A DNA stretch of 60,500 nt, the filler included, from Sphacelaria rigidula (lineage: Eukaryota): NCBI GenBank assembly GCA_964200075.2. It is 8 parts of 8 records of this genome, joined end to end, with 100 filler letters (N's around TTAATTAATTAA, not from the genome) between each part and the next. Parts side by side here need not be neighbours in the genome. Positions count along the whole stretch, not along the records: positions 7,577 to 15,051 come from CAXNAA020014752.1; positions 15,152 to 22,626 come from CAXNAA020014753.1; 6 more parts are not named here. One strand, given 5' to 3'. The position numbers and the translations under genes were made by a program. Below the pieces are notes generated by a model that was not told the origin of the DNA, did not search any database, and saw nothing but the letters and a program-made list of their open reading frames with translations. Below are positions 7,577 to 41,364 of this stretch, piece by piece (within the stretch, counting starts at the first letter, position 1; the number at the start of each line of letters is the position of its first letter).

Positions 7577-7885
7577 GAGTACGGATACGAGTCAAGTCTT
7601 CCCGCTGCCTGTACCCAGCCCATGACCTCAGTTATCACGGTAACAACTTCATGTTGTGTCCACCGGCGTCCGGGCTTGCCTATTCGAAGCTTGCGGCCTT
7701 TTCGATCACTTATCTGTGATCAGCACATCGTGTGTAGCACAACGTTGTGACAGCTAAGCACGTATCTCACCCGCTACGCGTCCGTTTACTGCGTGCGATG
7801 GCTTGAACGACAGCTACAGACTATGTGAGTGTTTTCCATATGTTGATGTGTCCATGCGGGACTTGTGGGACGGATGCTGAAGGTT

Positions 7886-7975
7886 GACGGGTGTAACATA
7901 ATACGTCAACGCTGACGTATGTAACAGAGTACATCAACGCTGACGGATGTAACAGATTACGTCAACACTGACGTA
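7886..7975 (+). repeat. ~28-bp tandem repeat, ~3 copies
   Basis: Unit approx TGACGGATGTAACAGATTACGTCAACGC. Confidence 0.8.
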
Positions 7976-8117
7976 AATAGCAAGACCCCAAAAAAATAAC
8001 TTGTTGAAAAGTGCTTTTTTCATCCTTCTCCGTCGTTTTTGCCCCGAGAAGAGGGCTCAGCGGATGTTGACACCTCAGAGCGTTCCAGAGCACCTTTGCG
8101 TTTTCCGTAGGTCACAG

Positions 8118-8224
8118 TGTAGTCGGTGGAAGGACCGCGTGCTTAGAGGACCGCACCGTAGCTCGAAACACCTCAGTCTCGACGTTTTCCAAAACCTATC
8201 GGGCCAGTCTCTGCAGGTACCACG
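8118..8224 (+). mobile_element. Truncated copy of the TGT..ACA MITE seen at 34878-35072
   Basis: Shares AGGACCGCG...AAAACC.ATCGGGCCAGTC...GCAGGTACCACG with 34890-34968. Confidence 0.7.
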
Positions 8225-8786
8225 ATAGTGTGGGAGGAACTTTTGGCAGGAAATAGATCAACCTCGTCACGGGTGCATGGGCCCTTGATTATTCTGGTCG
8301 CACTCCGACAGATCACCCAGGGATTCACCCGAGCAACCCGAGGCCTCACGTACTGAATCATGACGTCACGGCGATAGTCGAAGCCCCCGATCTTCCGCGA
8401 CTGATGCGATGGGCAAAAGACAGGAATGCTACACATCAACCCCTGTCCCTCTTCTCCATTGTATCCACTACTGGCTTGGGAATCCTGTCACCAACGTTTA
8501 GCTTCTCGCACGAAGCGACGACAAGCTCTGCTTACATCCACTCTACGTCCGGCCTACACTTTCGCCTCTTGCTCTTACTGCCCATTGTACACCCTTCAAA
8601 GTTTCCCACTGTCTTGTAATCTGCTGTGATTTTTTTTTGCCGTATTCGCCGATGTTGTAGCCAGAAGCGTTGTTTTGAATGGCGGAGGTGGCCGGCGACC
8701 ACCAGCGCACCTGAACTTCTGCTTCGCCGTCGGCCCCCTCGCGCTTGTCCGTGACCCTACCCACCAAAAACGGAGCTTTGTCACCG

Positions 8787-8896
8787 CACGGGTGGCCACT
8801 GCGGTGCCTGTAACCTCAAATTTCGACGTGACAGACCTTGTGCAACGTCTGTCACGTCGAAATTTGAGTTTACAGGCACCCCAGCGGCCACCCGTG
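8787..8896. mobile_element. 110-bp foldback MITE, CACGG...CCGTG termini, 2-bp TSD (CG)
   Basis: ~50-bp near-perfect arms around a 10-nt loop; CG at 8785-86 and 8897-98; excision restores transposase frame FVFFL-GDKAPFLVGRV. Confidence 0.9.
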
Positions 8897-11750
8897 CGAG
8901 AAAGAAAACAAAATGTCCCTTGTCGATCGAGGGAACATACCCTGCTGGATGGCCATCTCCGTCGCTCCCGCTACCTAGCACTAAGTTATCGACCCCACCC
9001 TTTCCCGGATCATCGCCGACAGGCGGCTTCCACCCCCCCACAGACCCCTTGACTACATCAACATCCCTATCTGCCCCCGCTCTCTCTTCCCGTGACCCTC
9101 CAGATGACTGCACGCCATTACGCTTGAACCAATGACACGAAAGGTTCCACGGTACTGAGCCTTTCGCGGCCAGAAGTCGGTGGGACGTCGCCATGTCGTA
9201 CTTGATGGCCTGCTGTTTGTCGAAATCTGCGCGTCGCACGGGAGGGTGGAGGCAGTACATCTGAGGAATTCAGGGCTCGGATGCGCTCCTGCGGTGGGGA
9301 AAATGATACGAGAAATAAGGATGAGAAACTTGGACCCGCCGTCCGCAGCGAAAACAAAACAAATAGAGTACACAGCGATCAGGACACAGTGTCACCACCT
9401 GGGGTGCTTGGGGGTGCAACGCACCGAGGGGATTGAGGGCAGCTAGCCGACAGTGGACGGCGTTATAGCGAGCCAGTGTGTTATCTCGCTGTGCGGCATC
9501 CACTTCTTTCAGGTCGAATGGAGGTGCACACTCCAGATCTGGAACACCCATGCGGAAGAGCGGGTGAGGGGCTCCCTCGTAGATCCCGGCGGCCGTCTTT
9601 CCCGTGAAGACTGTAGCATGTATGTGCTTCTTCATGCCGACGGTCACCTGCTCCGTCCCCGCTGGGCGGATTTCGAATGAACGGGGCTGAGTCACGCCAC
9701 GAATGGGCAGCACACGGCCACCTTCACCGACAGCTCCTTTGAAGTTGCCGAGGGAGCGAAGAGTGGTGGTGAACACCTCCAGTGCCTCGTATGCCTTGCG
9801 AAAAGCTTCCGCCTGCTGCCTTCTCGTGAACAGGCAAACTCCCTCGCAGTGAATGGAAATCCTGATAAAAAATCCCAATGCATTTGTCGTCGGTTCTTGC
9901 TATATACATCTAGATTTCTTCTCATCGCCAACTCGCTGTACGCATAAAACATATCCCTGGAAATGCCAGTACGAAATCAGGCCGGTTTGTTCGACCCATA
10001 TTATTATGGTATTTAGGAGCGTAAGCACGTGTGCTGCGGATCATCGTGGATTCTCGTCCAGACCACCTAAGGCGCTTCGAAAGCGCATATATCTGGACAC
10101 CGTGTCGGCGTGGAATATCGTTGGCGGAGGCGGTATTTCATCTGCTCCTGGGGTTTTGCCCACCGCGTCTGCGGAGGCAACGCGTGATTTGTGCGACCCG
10201 TGTCAACAACAGCAGAGGTACTCGTGCAGTGAGAGATGTCGTCTGAAAAAAATACGACAGCATGAACGAAAAAAATAGACGAAAATATGGGTGGAGTATT
10301 GAGTGATGGGTGCGGTTTCACGCCTGCAGTATCACAGTAGAAGGCGAACGATTTTGTTTATCCCTTCCAGTGCGGTGGGGATGGTGTCTCCTTGCCCCTC
10401 ATCGTATTCGCGGATAGATTACAATGTAGTTTGACGTGGTCACGGGGAGGAACAGCGGGGTCGCGGGTAGATGATGTAACCATCACCGGGTCTTCTGATG
10501 GGTGGGTCCGTTCGTGTACTGGATAAAATCAACGTCTTGGTTGGATTCACTAGGGTTCGTATAAGGAACGAGCATTTTTTTCCGTGACACACAGCTACAT
10601 GATTTCCTCCACTCGTCACTGTTGTCTGCAAGGATAATCCCGACGCACCTCGAAAAGACCTGGTCTATCATGATGTGGGTATGTCCCACCATCATGTAAT
10701 TAATCTCCACGCGGCCAATTGTCCCACGGGCCACAAGACATCCGAGGTATCCCAGCACGATATGATTCTTATTCTCCCCCACACAGTTGTCGAGTTGCAG
10801 AAATAGCTCATCGATGTAAGCTGGTGTGTCGCCGGTGCAATACAAGTCGAATAATCGGGTAAGTGCGAGGTGGATTGAAGTGCAAATAAGATTGCTCCCT
10901 GCACAGCGGCGAGCAACGACGGCGTCAGGGCGCAAATGTCAGTATTCTCGGGGGTTGCTGGCTACGAGGAATGCCGTAACAACTCATATCTTGCTCTCGG
11001 TCGGGATACGAAAAGGCCTCCCGAGCAGATTGCTCGGATAAGAAAGCAAGATAGTCAAGTGGCTTAGGTCTCCCGCGGTGCGCCAGTAATCGCGGGCGGT
11101 GTCTGGCTCACGAATGCCGTGTGTGCGTGCACATCGCGTGGGAGAGCAGGGAGTCACTTCCTCCGATTGTGAGGGGAGACAGGAAGAATTCCACGAACTG
11201 CCCTTCCACAAGTACTGCCATAACTTTTTGGCGCTCTGCGTATCCCCTGCCAGGCGTGGCGATCGCCAACAATCACGAGCAGAAGTCATATGCACCACTG
11301 AAGCAACATGAATGGATATTCAGGGCGTCAGTTACTCACCTACTTGTTATGGCGTCCGGGCTCATGACAGAAACCCTCGAAGGATGATAAGTAACTATGT
11401 ATGCCTTGACACCTCCTGCGGTCTCGGGACGAGAAAAATCTCCGAATACCGTCTTTGCAGCGAAACGGTCGTGAAGGAAACACCTTGAAACATTCATCAC
11501 ACTTCATAGAGGATATTTGCACCAAAACGCAGCATATTCCGGACAGGATAGGCTGGATTCTGGCAGGAAAGGGAGGAGGGCGCACGCTGAGCACGGCAAA
11601 GACACAAACAAAGGGATGGAAAAAACAAATGAATGCAGACATGTCGACTCAAGGCCTATTGGCCGCGCCGTAGAAGCGTACATACAATCGTTTTTGTAGT
11701 CTGCGCACACACGCACACTTGAAGATACAGTTACACATATGTACTGTCAG

Positions 11751-14060
11751 GTTCGGGCTCCAACAACTCCGCGTGTCGCTGTCAACGTGGCAGCTAAGGA
11801 CGATCACAGTCGTATCAGAAGCGGGGATGTGCGGTGCTAATGAGGGGGGGGGATACCACCATGAGTAGTGGCAGGCATGAGGGCGTCCACGTGATTTTGT
11901 TTTCGAGGTATCGACAGTGAGAGGCGCGTGTTTGCTATAAATAGTGATGTCCTCGGTCATCCAAACAGGACGAGCTGTCGCCACCTGGTTCTTGCAGTTT
12001 GGACCGCTCGATCAGAGTGGTGTTCCGATAGGGGTAGCACTTTCGAGGCGAAATCCCGTCTGGTTCAGGGGCTCCTGAAGATCCTAGTTGCCGTGTTTGT
12101 GCACCCCTAGCGCGGCATCACTTATCACTTTGTGGGGAGGAACCGTTTCTTTACTGAGCGAAGGAGAAACGCATCCAACGGTATGGGGTGGCTGATACCC
12201 AAGATTTGTACGTTCCTGTGGATGAATCGTGTTGTGGCCCGCGGTGTAGGTGCAAGCCCGAAACACTACATGTACATGTCAACCGCACCGCCGAAAAGTA
12301 TATGCGGGTGTGGAAATCGCAAAATACTGTGTAGTGCCGTTGTGGTCTTCGAGATGAGGGGTAGAGAACGAAGGTATAAGGAATCGTCCAATTCTAGGGG
12401 CCTAAGAAAAGCGAGGTAAAATTTGAAGCGAGGGGGGCCGCAGAAAATGACAGAACGGTGTAGAACACACGTATACGACCTGGAAATATGCAGGGAAACA
12501 TCATCGCATCAGACTGAAATACAAAGGGTGTACTCATGATCATGCATGCCATAGTCTGACTATGCTTGGTTACCCGTGCTGTCGCGATAACCGCTCTCTC
12601 ACCTGTCTATGCCGTGTGTCAACGGCGAGCACATCGGTAACGCGAATGCCGTTTGAGCTGCTGCGTCTGCTTGCATGGACGCATACTTGAGTGGTTCCAT
12701 GTTCGCCTTTGCTCTGATGGCACCGGGGCTGATGGTGGCCAATCGCTGTCGGTCTGCCGTCAACACCTGAAGGAGCGGCGGGATGTCGACGTGCGGCTTT
12801 TTCAGGGGCGGCTGGTCGTGCACTGGGCTCTGGGGAATTGGTTAAGCCCACTTCCCGATTACGACACCTCAACAAATACGCGTGCTTAGGCCCGTGAAGA
12901 CCTGTCTGCCACCAGCGGCTCGAATGAGGCACTCTACTCGCGGGATAGGGTGCCTTCGGAGGAGGATGAAATGGTGCTGGGCGAGGGGAGGGACACAACG
13001 GCCGAGGCGTCCAAATCCACGCCCTACTAGCGCAGCTGTACGATGACAAAAGGCCTTGAGTCCTGAACAAGCCGAGGGCATGCTGAAAATACATGAATAG
13101 GAGGTGATGGTGACATATTGTTTACAGCTAAGAAGTGAAAAATCAACCTCGGCGTCTCAGAGGTACAGCCTGGTGCAGAAAAGTGCGCAATTTAGTTGTC
13201 GTTGAGTGCATCGATGTGCGTCCTTCTCTCGGTTGAACGAACACCAAATTACTCAACAAGAGTACGAGGCCAGAGTCTCCTCATGACTTTTGGGGGTTGG
13301 TCTGTCGTAGCCTAATCGCGGTATTTTTTCGTCGTGGGAACGCTACATACAGAATGAGCTCACGATGTTCTCACCTTCATATGCTCAGCTTGCCCCGCTG
13401 CGGCCTTCTTCATCGTGTCGGGGTCTGCCGTTACCTCACACCTGCTGTCCCATTCAGGGTGTCGTGAAAAAGCGTGCAGCTGTGACACTTCATAAACGAG
13501 CATCGGAGCGCATCTTGTAGTGTGGGCGGTGTTTCCGCAGCGTGAGGTAAATATAGGCCATGGTAACGGCTGCCGCTCCGACACGAGTCGTCTCTGCCAC
13601 GTAAGTGTCGTACAATTCCTGCCGAACGTCGCGGTGCATCGGAGGAATAAGTAACGTCATGGAGCGTTCGAATCTGCGCTTGCGTGGAATCGATAGTAGA
13701 GAGGGTCATGCTACGGTAGGACAGCGGGGAGGGGGGAGTGGGTGGTAAAGGGGATTTGGGGCCTTTTTTTTTGTATAATATTGTACTTGAAATTGCCGTC
13801 GGTAGCAGCAGCGGTTGCTCCAACGCGCCTGTCCTAGATAAATAAGACTCGCTCATACTGCTTTGCTCCGCTTTTGCCCCAGAACTAGTGCACCGCGAGC
13901 TTCTTGGGTCGTCTGCAGTATCTATAGACCAATGTTTTCGTGGGTTCAAATACTTTCCTGCCTTTCGCAGCGTGACTCGACGAAAGATGCGTGACGGAAA
14001 ACGTTTGAAAGACGCGCCTGTTGCTGGAAAAGAAGTATCGATTACGGATGGCGAGTCTCG
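11751..14060 (+). pseudogene. Candidate antisense gene exons nested in transposase introns (11751-11833, 11998-12180, 13883-14060; others likely)
   Basis: Each has a YAG acceptor and GT donor. First two splice in phase (FGLQQLRVSLSTWQ...GMC-VWTARSEW..., one internal TAG). Third is open for 58 codons with a GTGAGT donor. No family recognised. Confidence 0.4.
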
Positions 14061-15218
14061 GTGAGTGTGCTGACAACGCCGCGCGGTTGCGCCACTGCGT
14101 GGTGGGAGCGGCTTTCCTAACGGTACAAATAAGATTTGCAAGTGCAGCTGCTGAGCGCGCACGCGGGACTACGGATGAATGAGTCAGAGACTCGCCAACC
14201 GCTGTTTGTACGTACCTTCTTGTAGCGCATGTAGAAATATGTCGCATCCTCGTGGGGCATAATCTCACCGTACACGTCGGTATAACAATCTAGGTAAGCG
14301 AGGAGAGCTCGCTCGCGGCGGACTCTTTTCTTGCCTGACAGCCGCCGCGATTCCTGACATATGCAGTGTCGAAATAGGCGCGTCGACACGCATTTATTTA
14401 CGGGCGGTGGTTTTTGTGTGCCGTGCATTGTGGTTTGACGTGTATGTCTGACATGCTCGAACCACGGTACGGGGAAAATCATGGCCAACCAGGGATCGGG
14501 ATGCCCTTAGACGTGGAGCACTTCTGTGGTGGTGCTTCATGGTTACTGTTGGGGTGAGATACAAGCTGGGCCAGCCTACAGGCGGATTTGTACTTTGCAG
14601 GCGAATTCGCACTTCTTTTCTTGAGTTGGGTGGTGAAATTTGGTATGGGCAATCAACAGGGCATGAAGTACAGCTGTCTGTGGGGTCCCGAAAAAATTTG
14701 TGAGGTTGGATCTTATTTTATTTTTTTCATTGATCGCGCGCGTTTGAGTATGGTAGCGACCATTGCGCTACGAGAACGCCCGAACCTCCCATAAAAAAAG
14801 AATGAAGGCCTATTTGTTTTACTCTGCACCTCTGTCGTTTTGCATGCCAAGTTTCAACTCACAATTCCAAAAAATCGAGGCGAAGAATTCAGAAGATAAG
14901 GTCTAGGAGTAATAATTATTTCTCCTCGAAACTCCCCCAAAATCACAAAAAAAAACGACAAAGCCGTCATTTTTTTTCATGCACTAACGGTTCTCCTGTT
15001 GGTGTGAACAGCCTTTCCAGTGTAGTCTGCAGTACTGACAAACCACGGTACNNNNNNNNNNNNNNNNNNNNNNNNNNNNNNNNNNNNNNNNNNNNTTAAT
15101 TAATTAANNNNNNNNNNNNNNNNNNNNNNNNNNNNNNNNNNNNNNNNNNNNAAACACAAAGAAGAAAACAAGAGTAGATAATCAGCCTACTGACGTCCTT
15201 CCGTTTTCTTGTGTTTTG

Positions 15219-19589: not shown

Positions 19590-21150
19590 CTAACGCGGTT
19601 CGGACGAATCAGAGTTCATACGGGTTGACTCCCTATGAATGTTGAATACGAATCATGTACCTCAGAGTCATCCGGTATGAATCACAGATGGTGAAGTTGT
19701 ATGTTCAAGGTCATACCGCACGAATCTCGGACTGGGAATGTGTACACTCCACGTAGTATCAGACGAATCGAGAGTAAAAATACCGCACGAATCCCGAACT
19801 GGGAATGTGTACACTCCACGAGTATCAGGCGAATCGACAGTGTCAAGTATGTACGAATTACACTGTCTGCATGAATCCTGGGCGGGAAACATGTACACTT
19901 TATTCATCTCGTATGAATTGAAGGTAGGGAACATGTGCATACGACTCATGCTGCATGAACGGAGATTCGGAAACACGTACGCTTTATTCACCTCGTATGA
20001 ATGGAAGGCGGGAAACATGTTATTTATGATTCATGCTCACAAACGCAACGTGGAAAACATGTACATGAATCACATGACTCATGCTGCATGAATCGTAGGA
20101 GAATAAACAGCTAGAAGAATCACTTTGGGCGCACAGATGCGTGCTGTGCCATGCTGAGCCATGCTGTACCGCACTGCCCGCGGACTGCCGAGTACACTAC
20201 CGGAGTTTACGCGAGGATGCGAGGACAACTCGTGCTTGTGTTGTGTTATTTTCAAGTGTTAGTGGTATTGTATACAGCATGTTGAGGTCATCTGTACCAC
20301 AGAACACATGTAACCACACACGCTGTTAACAACATAGCTCGGGGGGGGGGGGGGACTGGATAGAAAAAAGGCTTTGGGCACGCGTCTGCGTATGTTGTAC
20401 TACTCGTACTACCAGTGATGTATCACGTGTGAGTACAAAATTTGAAGTTGGTTTATTTATCGCGGATTTCGCATGTGAGGGGTTCGCGAACTGTGCGCTC
20501 TTATTTCCCTACCCGACCTGCAAAAGGGCCGCGCAACTGAAGAGTTCCACCCCATATAATGGGAGGTGGGAAACAACATGTTCACTTGATCCATATCATG
20601 CGAACAGAAGGTGGAGAACATGTACGCTTGATTCGCGCTGCAAAAAAACAGTGGGACACATACACTCTTGATCCATCTTATATGAACGGAAGGTGAGGAA
20701 CATATACGTGTGATTGATTCATGGCGAATGAATGGAAAGTGGAAATGACAAACATGTACACTTGATTCACCTCGTATGAATGGAAGGTGGGGAACATGTA
20801 CGTATTTCATGCGGCATGAACGGAAATTGGGAAGCACGTACGCTTTATTAATATCGTACGAATGGAAGGTGGAAAACGTGCGCCCATAATTCGTGCTGAA
20901 TGAATGGAAATCGAAAAACATGTACCCATGATTCACGTCATACGAATGGAGGGTAGGAAACGTATACCTTTGACGGTGTAACGCACGAACCACGAACTGG
21001 GAATCCGTACATTTGAAGCGGTGCCGTACGAATCACGAACCCAAAAGACGTACAAATCAGAACTTGTGTACGAATCGTATCATTGATTCGTCCGAATGTT
21101 CAATGAGTCGAATCGCGATCTTGTTCGTCCGAATCGTGGAATCTAACGGA
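19590..21150. repeat. Degenerate ~42-bp minisatellite arrays (approx 19700-20095 and 20560-20960) bracketed by inverted TTCGGACGAATCA motifs
   Basis: Unit approx GGTGGGAAACATGTACACTTGATTCACCTCGTATGAATGGAA; TTCGGACGAATCA at ~19599 and its inverse TGATTCGTCCGAA at ~21084. Confidence 0.8.
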
Positions 21151-23555: not shown

Positions 23556-26500
23556 AACAGCGGATCCTGAAAAATGGGGTCCATCTCACAAATAACAGTG
23601 GACCCTGGAAAATGGGATTCATCTCACGAATGAGATTGGAGTGGCATTTCTCTCTTGCAGGGATGACGCGAAACGCTTACGACCGAGCGAAGCCATCTTC
23701 CCCCCTAAATGTCCGCACCAGTTCAGCAGCTGTGGCTAGGTGCACCTAACGAATGCGGTGTACACGCGTGTCGATGACGATATCACCCTGTGCTCCAGCC
23801 AGGCACTGATGAACGAGGAAAGACTTTTACAGGTCGATACCACACAAATGGGGGCCCGGGGAAGTTTTTTCCCATTAAAATCCGTGTTTTCCAACCTGCA
23901 AAGCGTTCCATGCGCATTGTTTTCTAATACAAGCGGTAACTTGTCGATTTCTGTTCCGTTCTTCAAGGACTGCGTGATGCCGATCCCCGAAACGTTTGGT
24001 GTTGCTGTTCGATGGTATCTTCGGATGTTTAACTGGACCCGAAGCAGCCACCTTCTCTCAGGTTTTGAGAACCGTTTGAATTGTGTGGTTGCAGTTCATA
24101 AAAATCAAACTCTCTAGCTTTCACAGGTTTGTTACCCTGACCACCTCTGAGCAGACGGGAGTACGCGCGGTACAGCAACGAAAGGTAGCTATGATCCGGT
24201 TTGCCTGCCGTACTGCCGACAGCGTCGCGTGAAAGCCACAAGACCCTTGCTGTCGGCGGTTGATGGCGTGGGTTATGCAACGACGTGCGGTTGACCGTAG
24301 AGCACTCTCGTTTCTCCTCCCAACTTGTGATAATGCATGACCTCCTGACATCGGAATATATATAACTCATGGGGAGCATCTCACAGTGTACCGAGCTGTC
24401 CACGCGACCAGCGTGTGCTGCAGATTGCCTACGCGCCACGCTAGCAACAGTTAGGTCACCACCATAGGTATCTTTTTTTACTGCGCATGTTTGAAAGGTC
24501 TCTACAAGTGTCTGATCTCTCATACACCCCCATCAACTGGTGTGTGGCATGCCCTTCTGCTCGGCCACCCGGTTGGGGGAGGTCGGCGAAAATCAACAAT
24601 GAATAACACCCCCTAAGTTCAAACCGGATCTATCTGTTATTACCGTCGCACCGACCTTGCTGGCATGTGTGTGGCAGAGAACAGTAGTAGCGGTGACGAG
24701 AACATTGTCCTGTTTTTCAACGACATCTTTTTCAACGCACAGAGGCGCGTCCTGTCCAAAAAGACAGGCAAAGAGAAGTCGATCTTCGCGTTGGCGACGG
24801 GCAAGAAGAGGCGGAATCTCTTCGCACCTCGATGTTCTGGCACATGGAAAATTGGGCGCATGCTGGTGTAATAACATCGATGATGCCAATTTCACATGCG
24901 ATTGGTAATCGTCGAGCGAGGACACAAAAAGGACACGGGCGAGTAGCTTCCTCTCTGCCGTTGCTTCTCTCTCTGGTGATATCGTCATCGACACGCGTGT
25001 ACACCGCATTCGTTAGGTGCACCAAGCCACAGCTGCTGAACTGCTGTGGACATTCGGGGGAAAGATGGCTTCGCTCAATCGTAAGCGTTTCGCGTCATCC
25101 CTGCAGAAACGAAATGCCACTTCAACCATATTTTTTGTATGAACCCCATTTTCTAGGATTCACTGTTACATGAGGTTCAAGTGGCATTTCTCTCTTGCAA
25201 GGATGACGCGGAACACGTGCGACCGAGCGAAACCATCTTCCCCCCCCAAATGTCCGCACCAGTTCAGCAGCTAGGTGCACCTAACGAATGCGGTGCCACA
25301 CGCGTGTCGATGACGATATCACCAGAGAGAGAAGCAACGACAGAGAGGAAGATACTCGCCCGTGTCCTTTGTGTGTCCTCGCTCGGCGATTACCAATCGC
25401 TCGAGAGACTGGCATCATCGATGTTACCAGCATGTACCCAATTTTCCATGTGCCAGAACATCGAGGTGCAGAGAGATTCCGTATCTTCTTGCCTGTGGCC
25501 AGTGCGAAGATAGATTTCTCTCTGCCTCTCTTTTTGGACAGGAAGCGCCTCTGTGCGCTGAAAAAGATGCCGTTGAAAAACAGGACAATGTTCTCGTCAC
25601 CGCTACTACTGTTCTCTGTTACACACATGCCAGCAAGGGCGGTGGTGCGGCGAAAACAACAGATATATCCGATTTGAACTGGGTGGGGGTGTTATTCATC
25701 GTTGATTTCACCCGACATGTATGTGAGCGACCCTCTGGGTGCCCAACGACAACAGCGTGCAAGACGCCAGTTTGGGCGGGGGGGGGGGGTTGTATATGAC
25801 ATCAAACAGGTGTGGAGACCTTCTTGACATGCGGAGTGAAGAAAGATACCTATGGTAGTGATCTAACCGTTGCGAGCGTGGTGCAGAGGGGTGCGTCCAT
25901 GGTGCAATCTGGAGCACACGCTGGCTGCGTGAACACCTCGGTACAGTAGCTTGCAAGGATGGATTCCGATGTGACGAGGTCACGCATTACCACCTGGGGC
26001 GAGATATGAAGCTACGAAGAACAAGGGTGCTCTACGATCAACCACTTGTCGTTGCATTCGACACCCACGCCATCAAGCGCCAACCGCAAAGGTCTTGCGG
26101 TTTTCAAGCAACGCTGGCGGCAGTACGGCAGGCAAACCCGATCATAGCTAGCTTTCGTCGCTCTACTGGACTGGCAGGCGTCTGCCCAGAGGTCGACCGG
26201 CGAAGCAACATGTACCGAATTTCGCAACCTCTGTAAAAACAAAACAGGTCGGTTTTCCCAACTACATGAACATGATTCAATTGACTCTCGTGGTCTGAGG
26301 AACTGTGGCTCCCCTGACCTCCCGCCAGGTATAGAAGAAGGACGATAGAGTTTTTGCAATCGTATGCAACACTCGCGGGGAAACATATAGGTTCTCCTGT
26401 ATGGAATTCCGCGTTTTCCAACCTGCAAACCGTTTAATGCCCGTTGCTTTCTAAGAAGAACGTTAAACTGTCAATTTCTGTTCCGTTCTGTACTGATTGC

Positions 26501-27638
26501 CGTACCCCCATGTCAGGAAAATTTGGTATTGCTGTTTTACAGCATCTTCGCACGTGTGGATGGACCCAAAGCGGCAACTCTTCCTCAGACCACAAGGGCC
26601 ATTTTAATCATGTGTATGTAGTTAGATCGGATCGGGTGTGCCTGCCGTACTGCCGCCAGCGTTGCTTGAAGGCCACAAGACCTTTGCGGTTGGCGCTTGA
26701 TGGCGTGGGTGTCGAATGCAACGACAAGTGGTTGATCGTAGAGCACCCTTGTTCTTCGTAGCTTCATATCTCCCCCCAGGTGGTAATGCGTGACCTCGTC
26801 ATATCGGAATCCATTCTTGCAAGCTACTGTACCGAGGTGTTCACGCAGCCAGCGCGTGCTCCAGATTGTACCATGGACGCACCCCTCTGCACCACGCTCG
26901 CAACGGTTAGATTACTACCATAGGTATCTTTCTTCACTCCGCATGTCAAGAAGGTCTCCACACCTGTTTGATGTCTCATACACCCCCCCCGCCCAAACTG
27001 GCGTCTCGCACGCTGTTGTCGTTGGGCACCTAGAGGGTCGCTCACATACATGTCGGGTGAAATCAACGATGAATAACACCCCCACCCAGTTCAAATCGGA
27101 TATATCTGTTGTTTTCGCCGCATCACCGCCCTTGCTGGCATGTGTGTAACAGAGAACAGTAGTAGCGGTGACGAGAACATTGTCCTGTTTTTCAACGGCA
27201 TCTTTTTCAGCGCACAGAGGCGCGTCCTGTCCAAAAAGAGAGGCAGAGAGAAATCTATCTTCGCACTGGCCACAGGCAAGAAGATACGGAATCTCTCCGC
27301 ACCTCAATGTTCTGGCCCATGGAAAATTGGGTACATGCTGGTAGCATCGATGATGCCAGTCTCTCGAGCGATTGGTAATCGCCGAGCGAGGACACACAAA
27401 GGACACGGGCGGGAGCTTCCTCTCTGTCGTTGCTTCTCTCTCTGGTGATATCGTCATCGACACGCGTGTGGCACCGCATTCGTTAGGTGCACCTAGTCAC
27501 AGCTGCTGGACTGGTGCGGACATTTGGGGGGGAAAGATGGTTTCGCTCGGTCGTAAGTGTTCCGCGTCATCCCTGCAAAAACAAATGCTACTTGAACCTC
27601 ATTTTCGAGGTGTACCCCATTTTTCAGGATCCGCTGTT
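23556..27638. mobile_element. Large foldback non-autonomous DNA transposon (outer element B), AACAGCGGATCC termini
   Basis: Terminal IR AACAGCGGATCCTGAAAAATGGGGT; arms ~25172-26143 and ~26630-27600 are near-identical inverted copies; flanks AGAT/AGTT. Confidence 0.9.
23594..25167. mobile_element. Same-family element A nested in the left TIR of element B
   Basis: AACAGTGGACCC...GGATTCACTGTT, ~190-bp TIRs, flanks AAAT/ACAT; removal rejoins B's TIR. Confidence 0.88.
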
Positions 27639-40919: not shown

Positions 40920-41364
40920 AACACGGGATCTTACAAATTGGGGATGGATCATTTATTGGGGATGAGAAACCCAGAGGATTAAAATCTTCGTATCCGCACC
41001 AAATATTCGAAATATGGTTCCGTTTCTTCACCTACTGATAGCTATCGACAACTGCTACACGCCATAGAAGTTTGGATTTCGAACACCGAAATGTTGGGGT
41101 CCTAGGTGATAAAACAGTCTTGTGGAATTTCGGGTGTCCGAGCGAACGCCAAAATGGTTCCGAAATGTTCTTTTTCACCTAGGACGCCAACATTTCGGTG
41201 ATCGAAATCCAAATTCCTATGGCGTGTGGCAGTTGTCAATAGCTATCAGTAGGTGAAGAAATGGAACCATATTTCGAATATTTGGTGCGAATACAAAGAT
41301 TTGAATCCTCCGGGTTTCTCATCCCCAATAAATGATCTATCCCCAATTTGTAAGATCCCGTGTT
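40920..41364. mobile_element. 445-bp foldback MITE, AACACGGGATC termini, 4-bp TSD TTTG
   Basis: ~195-bp inverted arms; TTTG at 40916-19 and 41365-68. Confidence 0.92.

Follow-up and report, generated by a model that had tools for sequence, protein, structure and literature searches.

The question raised by this locus is whether a split coding sequence on the minus strand of a contig of the brown alga Sphacelaria rigidula belongs to a mobile element or to a gene of its host and, if to an element, to what kind of element and with what use for the tail of its protein. The window, i.e., the whole stretch of 60,500 nucleotides analyzed here (filler included, from assembly GCA_964200075.2), consists of separate contigs chained by N spacers, and the locus lies on one of them (G000:C14752, window positions 7577-15051). 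It is very probable, in our judgment, that this contig carries an inactive internal piece of a Sola1-type cut-and-paste transposon, from a family with elements of ~20.7 kb. The fragment occupies 8223..14996 on the minus strand, likeness to sister copies of the family (family A below) ending at both of these positions. Because the sister copies carry on with common sequence past 8223 and past 14996, the window copy is an internal fragment, one that lacks the 5' arm as well as both terminal inverted repeats (TIRs).

The original prediction for this locus, made from the sequence alone, was a seven-exon spliced transposase gene, and all of the motifs that it named are found on the minus strand, with first codons at 14269 (GEIMPH), 13487 and 13383 (CxxC and H of the CxxC...H cluster), 12667 (DAAAQ), 10791 (DNCVGENKN), 10665 (D of GHTHIMIDQ), 8773 (PFLVG) and 8704 (WWSP). 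Exon borders were set by alignment with 17 sister copies, diverged subfamilies and annotated algal proteins; the RNA evidence comes from contigs of four runs of one study, which are RNA by the tool's guess and represent other copies, not the window copy. Exon 1 (14216..14353), an internal exon with GEIMPH, rests on the sister-copy alignment and, for its donor, on a joint in the RNA contigs. Alignment and RNA joints likewise define exon 2 with the CxxC...H cluster (13375..13618), exon 4 (11158..11246), exon 6 (9425..9861) and exon 7 (8436..9226), in which a linker is followed by a C-terminal domain. Exon 3 (12603..12766) holds the first catalytic Asp (codon 12667-12665), and exon 5 (10649..10898) holds the DUF7869 core with the second and third (10791-10789 and 10665-10663). 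The probable RNA contigs contain the exact joints 14216/13618, 13375/12766, 10649/9861 and 9425/9226, and they also join the 259-nt intron 4 with a one-base shift, because the last exon base is changed in this copy, where the context of the exon-4 donor is altered. No intron 3 joint occurs among the 15 of 23 joints listed; the intron 3 donor is used in another joint, described below. Donors near 9400 for exon 6, peculiar to the window copy, and acceptors near 9260 for exon 7 were considered and rejected, as homologues and joints give 9425 and 9226.

The window copy has an AG acceptor at all seven exons and GT at all six donors, and these are mostly kept among the 18 aligned copies (window included) covering each site, e.g., 15/15 for the exon-3 donor, 17/18 for the exon-6 acceptor and 12/17 for the exon-5 acceptor. 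Taken by majority, the 17 sister copies give a single open frame of 667 codons that aligns with residues 1-644 of the Ectocarpus protein P0007 (39% identity over 660 columns, E 1e-141), and conservation relative to the diverged subfamilies is concentrated in the seven exons. The seven GT-AG exons in one frame are thus as predicted for the majority sequence, and the count of seven is too low: position 14353 is a splice acceptor and not the start of the gene. Intronless relatives have a Cys-rich N-terminal region, the profile of which finds a matching exon in other subfamilies (63 matches by genome search), and matches on L190 and L191 overlap DNA upstream of two family-A copies, L042 and L037. 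There are therefore no fewer than eight exons in the gene, at least one of them 5' to the seven and present in sister copies.

Exon 5 matches DUF7869 (PF25273) at 77.7 bits against a cut-off of 26 (E 1.2e-21). Across 83 aligned rows the three Asp are kept in 77 (the other rows being gaps), 79 and 79, and the C, C and H of the CxxC...H cluster in 76, 77 and 76. The fold was modelled on the homologue P0007 (mean pLDDT 77.8) and not on the window copy; the top 25 of the 50 listed rows of a wide fold search (VIA) with this model are DDE transposases or integrases, the best being mariner transposases and retroviral integrases (Z 9.4, root-mean-square deviation [rmsd] 3.4, 169 residues aligned), and Foldseek places Mos1 first (E 0.012). 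A D-D-D RNase H fold of the DUF7869 type is thereby supported as the predicted core, in keeping with the candidate triad first proposed. A profile search collects 7175 proteins at E up to 0.001, of which 150 were listed. The named homologues are all brown algal, which makes a brown alga the most likely host. DUF7869 was not found in the literature searched; it is linked here to elements whose ends, duplications and target motif are those of Sola1.

That the window copy no longer encodes an active enzyme, as was suspected from a few lesions, is borne out by four frameshifts due to 1-base deletions (near 14318 in exon 1, near 13504 and 13435 in exon 2 and near 8633 in exon 7), a premature TAA at 8534-8532 in exon 7, and a 112-bp insertion in the same exon at 8787..8898. 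The insertion is a palindromic miniature inverted-repeat transposable element (MITE; 402 first-look genome candidates, 40 scored). It is missing from the 14 sister copies that span the site and is skipped in contigs of 4/4 probable RNA runs; the original prediction had marked it for removal from the reading frame. A stop or frameshift is present in the covered part of 17 of the 18 compared copies, L037 having none over 568 of 668 codons. Divergence from the majority sequence within the family is 3.3, 2.8 and 4.1% at codon positions 1, 2 and 3, and such near-even divergence is the expectation for copies that decay after insertion. A gene domesticated by the host might also give rise to the spliced joints of the probable RNA contigs, and these are what can be said for it; those contigs bear the letters of other copies and are without the MITE, whereas the window copy has its frameshifts, stop and insertion and belongs to a multi-copy family with TIRs in which the differences between copies are close to neutral. 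The probability of domestication is practically nil, and for the window copy the idea is already refuted.

A search of the genome with exon 5 gives 82 matches (95 candidates scored). A sharp common 3' end lies 540 bp beyond 8223 in 10 of the 12 compared copies, the other two having run off their contigs, and this end has 270 matches in the genome as compared to 0 for a control. The ends read AACAG...CTGTT and belong to imperfect TIRs of 182 bp, common to the 3' end and the 5' arm. On MITEs with both ends, a 4-bp duplication outside AACAG...CTGTT is exact in 12/24 paired ends and has at most one mismatch in 20/24, as compared to 1.3% exact and 11% within one mismatch for a mismatched-pair null, and there is none at 5-9 bp. 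The target derived from 86 distinct flanks is C-N-N-C-AWWT-G-N-N-G (A 0.67, A/T 0.68, A/T 0.73, T 0.57), C being found also at the next and fourth-next base. On contig C1473, which overlaps the family-A copies L037, L042 and L040, a 5' TIR near 2670 is followed by an opposite-strand spliced gene from ~12.7 kb to 3.4 kb and by the first transposase exon at ~13.5-13.9 kb, so that ~11 kb separate the 5' TIR from this exon on that contig alone. The genome search and flank alignment proposed at the outset have thus yielded a multi-copy family with TIRs and target-site duplications (TSDs), the latter on its MITEs, and at least four diverged subfamilies exist in this genome.

The opposite-strand gene is a divergent, spliced passenger (L201 4017-9473, L191 116-562, L204, L155/L156). 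Its exon 1, with a conserved VLDGNHR motif, lies upstream in four subfamilies and reaches top scores of 0.95-0.96 in the ESM Atlas, where the second cluster has ParB_N on 11% of its members; this ParB-like exon has no Pfam, NCBIfam or PDB match other than chance PDB rows, and no longer homologue of it was found. The later exons are 40-78% conserved between subfamilies, one late exon having 96 genome matches. They have what we take to be the layout of a beta-class DNA methylase, in which the catalytic and S-adenosylmethionine-binding motifs appear to have been replaced: no DPPY or FxGxG motif is present in these exons, and their best match is Eco57I at E 0.22. To judge from its sequence, the passenger apparently combines a ParB-like front with a methylase-like back whose motifs are degenerate.

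The closest known element is Sola1-1_Ec32 of Ectocarpus (PMC12477816, 2025), which measures 21,549 bp, ends in AACCG-CGGTT, combines an imperfect TIR of 282 bp with a 4-bp TSD and carries a ParB-methylase gene on its opposite strand. The two share AAC(A/C)G ends, a long imperfect TIR, a 4-bp TSD, a length of about 21 kb, nested insertions and an opposite-strand passenger, here with a putative ParB-like domain; they differ in the length of the TIR (182 bp here) and in the putative methylase motifs of the passenger, which look degenerate here. One family is listed in that paper, as compared to at least four diverged subfamilies here. Given so close a match, the element type is therefore known, and family A is a well-supported new member of the giant Sola1 elements. 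Of the intron-rich stramenopile lineage that had been proposed, the inactivated stramenopile copy stands, whereas the type cannot be called undescribed after the Ectocarpus report. The Sola1 elements of insects (PMC3845634) also share the AWWT target, which that paper calls a Sola1 hallmark, TIRs and MITE derivatives; they are 1.5-2.8 kb long, one of them with an intact 630-aa open reading frame, whereas the element here is ~20 kb, intron-rich and equipped with a second gene. Plavaka of red algae (10.1101/2025.02.11.637652) is likewise a giant DNA transposon with a ParB-like passenger. It belongs to another transposase superfamily, has three passengers (including ParB-like and methylase accessory genes) and carries repeat arrays beside its ParB gene, whereas no palindrome arrays were found on the element arms examined here. 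General background on classification is found in PMC4455052, PMC5751038 and 10.1101/2021.09.26.461848.

Several points weigh against this account of the element. The MITEs that supplied the duplications match the first ~47-58 bp of the TIR only and are not full-length copies, and as no contig examined holds both family-A ends, the length of ~20.7 kb is a composite of overlaps. Neither the core model nor the tail model has a Foldseek match at E 0.001, and Pfam and NCBIfam give nothing significant for the passenger methylase, whose identity depends on a likeness of motifs. The placement in Sola1 draws on the ends, TIR, duplication, target and passenger layout, with no reference Sola1 protein among the comparisons. 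It could be argued that the family belongs instead to Sola2 or to an unnamed Sola-related group, since AWWT 4-bp duplications occur in Sola2 elements too (PMC3627910), and since the branch leading to the algal clade is long (1.78) in a tree of 37 cores, none of them a named reference. The AACAG ends and long TIR match those of Sola1-1_Ec32, as does the passenger layout, and do not match Sola2-1_Ec32, which has GGCGG ends, a TIR of 26 bp and a length of 4.6 kb (PMC12477816), and we give this alternative a slim chance. The assignment to the Sola-type/DUF7869 transposases in the broader sense, made at the outset, agrees with the PF25273 match, the RNase H/DDE fold, the copy number, the TIRs and the 4-bp duplications.

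The C-terminal domain of the transposase (8436..8939, minus strand) is broken in the window copy and intact in L044, L032 and L046. In a model of the intact sister-copy domain (pLDDT 88.9) it is a beta-barrel, for which the top 6 VIA rows and 9/10 of the top Foldseek rows are BAH-bearing proteins (best Z 7.0, E 0.008); the BAH-domain folds align over 75-86 residues at Z 6.5-7.0 and rmsd 2.5-3.4. Two domain-only profiles of 16 and 28 rows, which have no sequence in common and are the same family by hhalign (99.9%), were searched against 177,635 PDB sequences, and both matched the BAH domain of SHL (E 0.0023 and 0.0013). A whole-length profile, A2, matched SHL only; two others, A6 with 25 rows and A7 with 24, and the single protein P0017 matched neither SHL nor human NIPBL, to which we return below. 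Of all Pfam families, BAH is the one most often matched by members of the domain, weakly in 4/28 (best E 0.00095) and 1/16 of them; PF01426 scores at best 17.1 bits, below its cut-off of 30.8, and the family-A domain itself has no Pfam BAH match. The domain is found in 56 of 73 long relatives (46/63 of those outside the profile) and in 0/73 reversed controls. In profile and fold searches alike, the tail comes closest to the BAH domains of SHL/EBS, AIPP3, MTA1, DNMT1, ORC1 and Rsc2, from which it differs in being shorter, in falling below the Pfam cut-off, in its fusion to a transposase and in the aromatic cage. We take the three aromatic positions of the methyl-lysine cage to be those of SHL/EBS; in the SHL alignment they are L/W/S in family A and W/W/acidic-or-polar in most relatives, and across 50 rows the central Trp is kept in 49/50, the first position is Trp in 29/50 and the third is never aromatic, so that the cage looks incomplete. 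By its best matches the tail appears to be an SH3-like barrel that is BAH-like rather than Tudor/chromo-like. Of the SH3-fold, Tudor/chromo-like segment of the original prediction, the barrel is retained and a BAH-like subtype is preferred: chromo and Tudor are close behind in fold space only, neither domain-only profile giving a Tudor or chromo match in PDB.

An intact copy would be transcribed and spliced, to judge from known DDE/D transposases; the enzyme would bind the TIRs and excise the element or its MITEs, insertion would follow with a 4-nt stagger, and the copies would then decay almost neutrally. In such a cycle the tail may dock the transpososome on nucleosomes or on a histone tail and so bias the place of insertion. 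Chromatin docking of this kind seems to us the most likely role of the domain, held with somewhat less than even confidence. The C-terminal domain of retroviral integrases is also an SH3 barrel, with a role in DNA binding or assembly, and a tail that bound DNA (target or ends) or held the transpososome together, without reading chromatin, is a real if tentative prospect. Two of the three cage positions are occupied by Leu and Ser in family A, and only the central Trp is constant; both facts are consistent with such a tail, as are a target preference that extends 4 bp beyond the duplication and the lack of H3K27me3 and H3K9me in Ectocarpus, which does have H3K79me2 and H4K20me3 (PMC12477816). 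The fold evidence for BAH is also weakened by a Z of 7.0, a value of the kind that the tool itself rates as common, by an MRG701 chromodomain at Z 6.5, i.e., within 1 Z of BAH, and a Tudor domain at Z 5.8, and more generally by chromo, Tudor, KOW and PWWP barrels within 1-2 Z; the nearest named ESM Atlas cluster for the tail, a lead only, is PWWP at 0.75. Against DNA binding or assembly stands the choice of BAH by sequence profiles as well as by fold, both in the SHL matches and in the frequency of Pfam BAH among the members. BAH domains can, moreover, bind nucleosomes without a methyl cage, as does that of Sir3, the nucleosome complex of which (4jjn) appears in the fold search with the tail. 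Transposons with reader domains of the chromo, PHD and Tudor kinds have been described (10.1101/2021.11.30.470311, PMC12477816). A fusion of BAH with a transposase was not found in a literature search that covered titles and the starts of abstracts of the papers listed and had most subscription papers, Repbase and bioRxiv supplements outside its range, and the main text of PMC12477816 mentions BAH nowhere (0 occurrences). If the tail does read chromatin, it would offer a testable handle on the site choice of giant transposons in brown algae, where H3K27me3 and H3K9me are absent.

Human NIPBL (PDB 6wge_E) is matched at its extreme C-terminus by the same two domain-only profiles (E 0.0032 and 0.002), in a comparison that ran one way, from transposase-tail profiles to PDB sequences. 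The match spans most of the domain (6wge_E residues about 1540-1635 of 1642) and is also seen with 6wg3_E. The whole-length profile A3 finds the NIPBL C-terminus at E 0.00048, partly aided by an acidic linker, and matches NIPBL only, not SHL; NIPBL is not among the matches listed for the three other whole-length profiles (A2, A6 and A7) or the single sequence P0017. We take the 1642-residue construct to end at residue 2804, in which case the matched stretch belongs to the long isoform only. NIPBL differs from the transposases in being a host cohesin loader. The profile alignments make a common ancestry of its C-terminus and the transposase tail likely, and its origin could possibly lie in capture from a transposon or, for both, in a BAH-like domain of a host. 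No link between the NIPBL C-terminus and transposons was found in the literature, most subscription papers, Repbase and bioRxiv supplements being outside the search. If the match reflects real homology, a gene involved in human disease would gain a fold and a possible transposon origin for its tail.

The joint that uses the intron 3 donor occurs in a contig of 4/4 probable RNA runs, at a depth of 168-317 as compared to 3-27 for normal joints, contig depth being a poor measure of expression. It leads from the exon-3 donor (12603) through four letters to 9074 in exon 7. A cryptic acceptor in intron 3 (11556..11570, minus strand), composed of a pyrimidine tract, CAG and then AATC, matches these four letters (at 11559). 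The reading frame is maintained across the joint, which omits exons 4-6, and with them two catalytic Asp, and retains the BAH-like domain; the transcript is known from this joint. An internally deleted copy is a candidate source; among the 26 genomic candidates scored, none had its break at 9074. As a side observation, one run has a skip from exon 4 to exon 7. A wider proposition would join three claims: that widespread Sola1-type transposases carry an unrecognised chromatin-tethering BAH-related domain, that the tail of NIPBL (in its long isoform) goes back to the capture of this very domain from such a transposon, and that the product of a deleted copy is an abundant protein, catalytically dead but still with the domain, which could act as a repressor. 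We consider this conjunction rather unlikely as a whole.

At the 3' break of the fragment there is an unrelated repeat (8117..8224) that matches L031 7391-7498 and L037 837-944. At its other end, 14560..14996 is part of a high-copy palindromic repeat that sits inside the intron preceding exon 1 and is common to sister copies (700 first-look genome candidates, 40 scored). Within intron 3, the 32 bp at 12526-12557 are part of a repeat of very high copy number, and the summed contig depth there is ~25,000; the word of this repeat also occurs at junctions in L049 and L081. The latter (G000:C1316) combines a family-A copy with one of subfamily B, in head-to-head orientation, the junction being a short common word. 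A common boundary of subfamily B was considered as a terminus and rejected, as B continues on both sides. In the N-terminal part of profile A3, positions 201-244 have a weak match (E 1.4) to the winged-helix DNA-binding domain of RFX5, which could be a TIR-binding domain or a chance match. In subfamily C, a long, degenerate tandem array precedes exon 1 (L047 500-2760, L084 70-1360, L086 4400-10000), and several MITE families of 125-460 bp have Sola ends, among them types of ~350 bp and ~410 bp (L109, L131-L148 and others). A scan for tRNA genes found none. On neighbouring contigs of the window, long inverted repeats at 25357-27411 (arms of 429 and 375 nt) and 40920-41364 (194 nt) are probably other foldback elements, and a degenerate 42/84-bp tandem array lies at 19670-21018.

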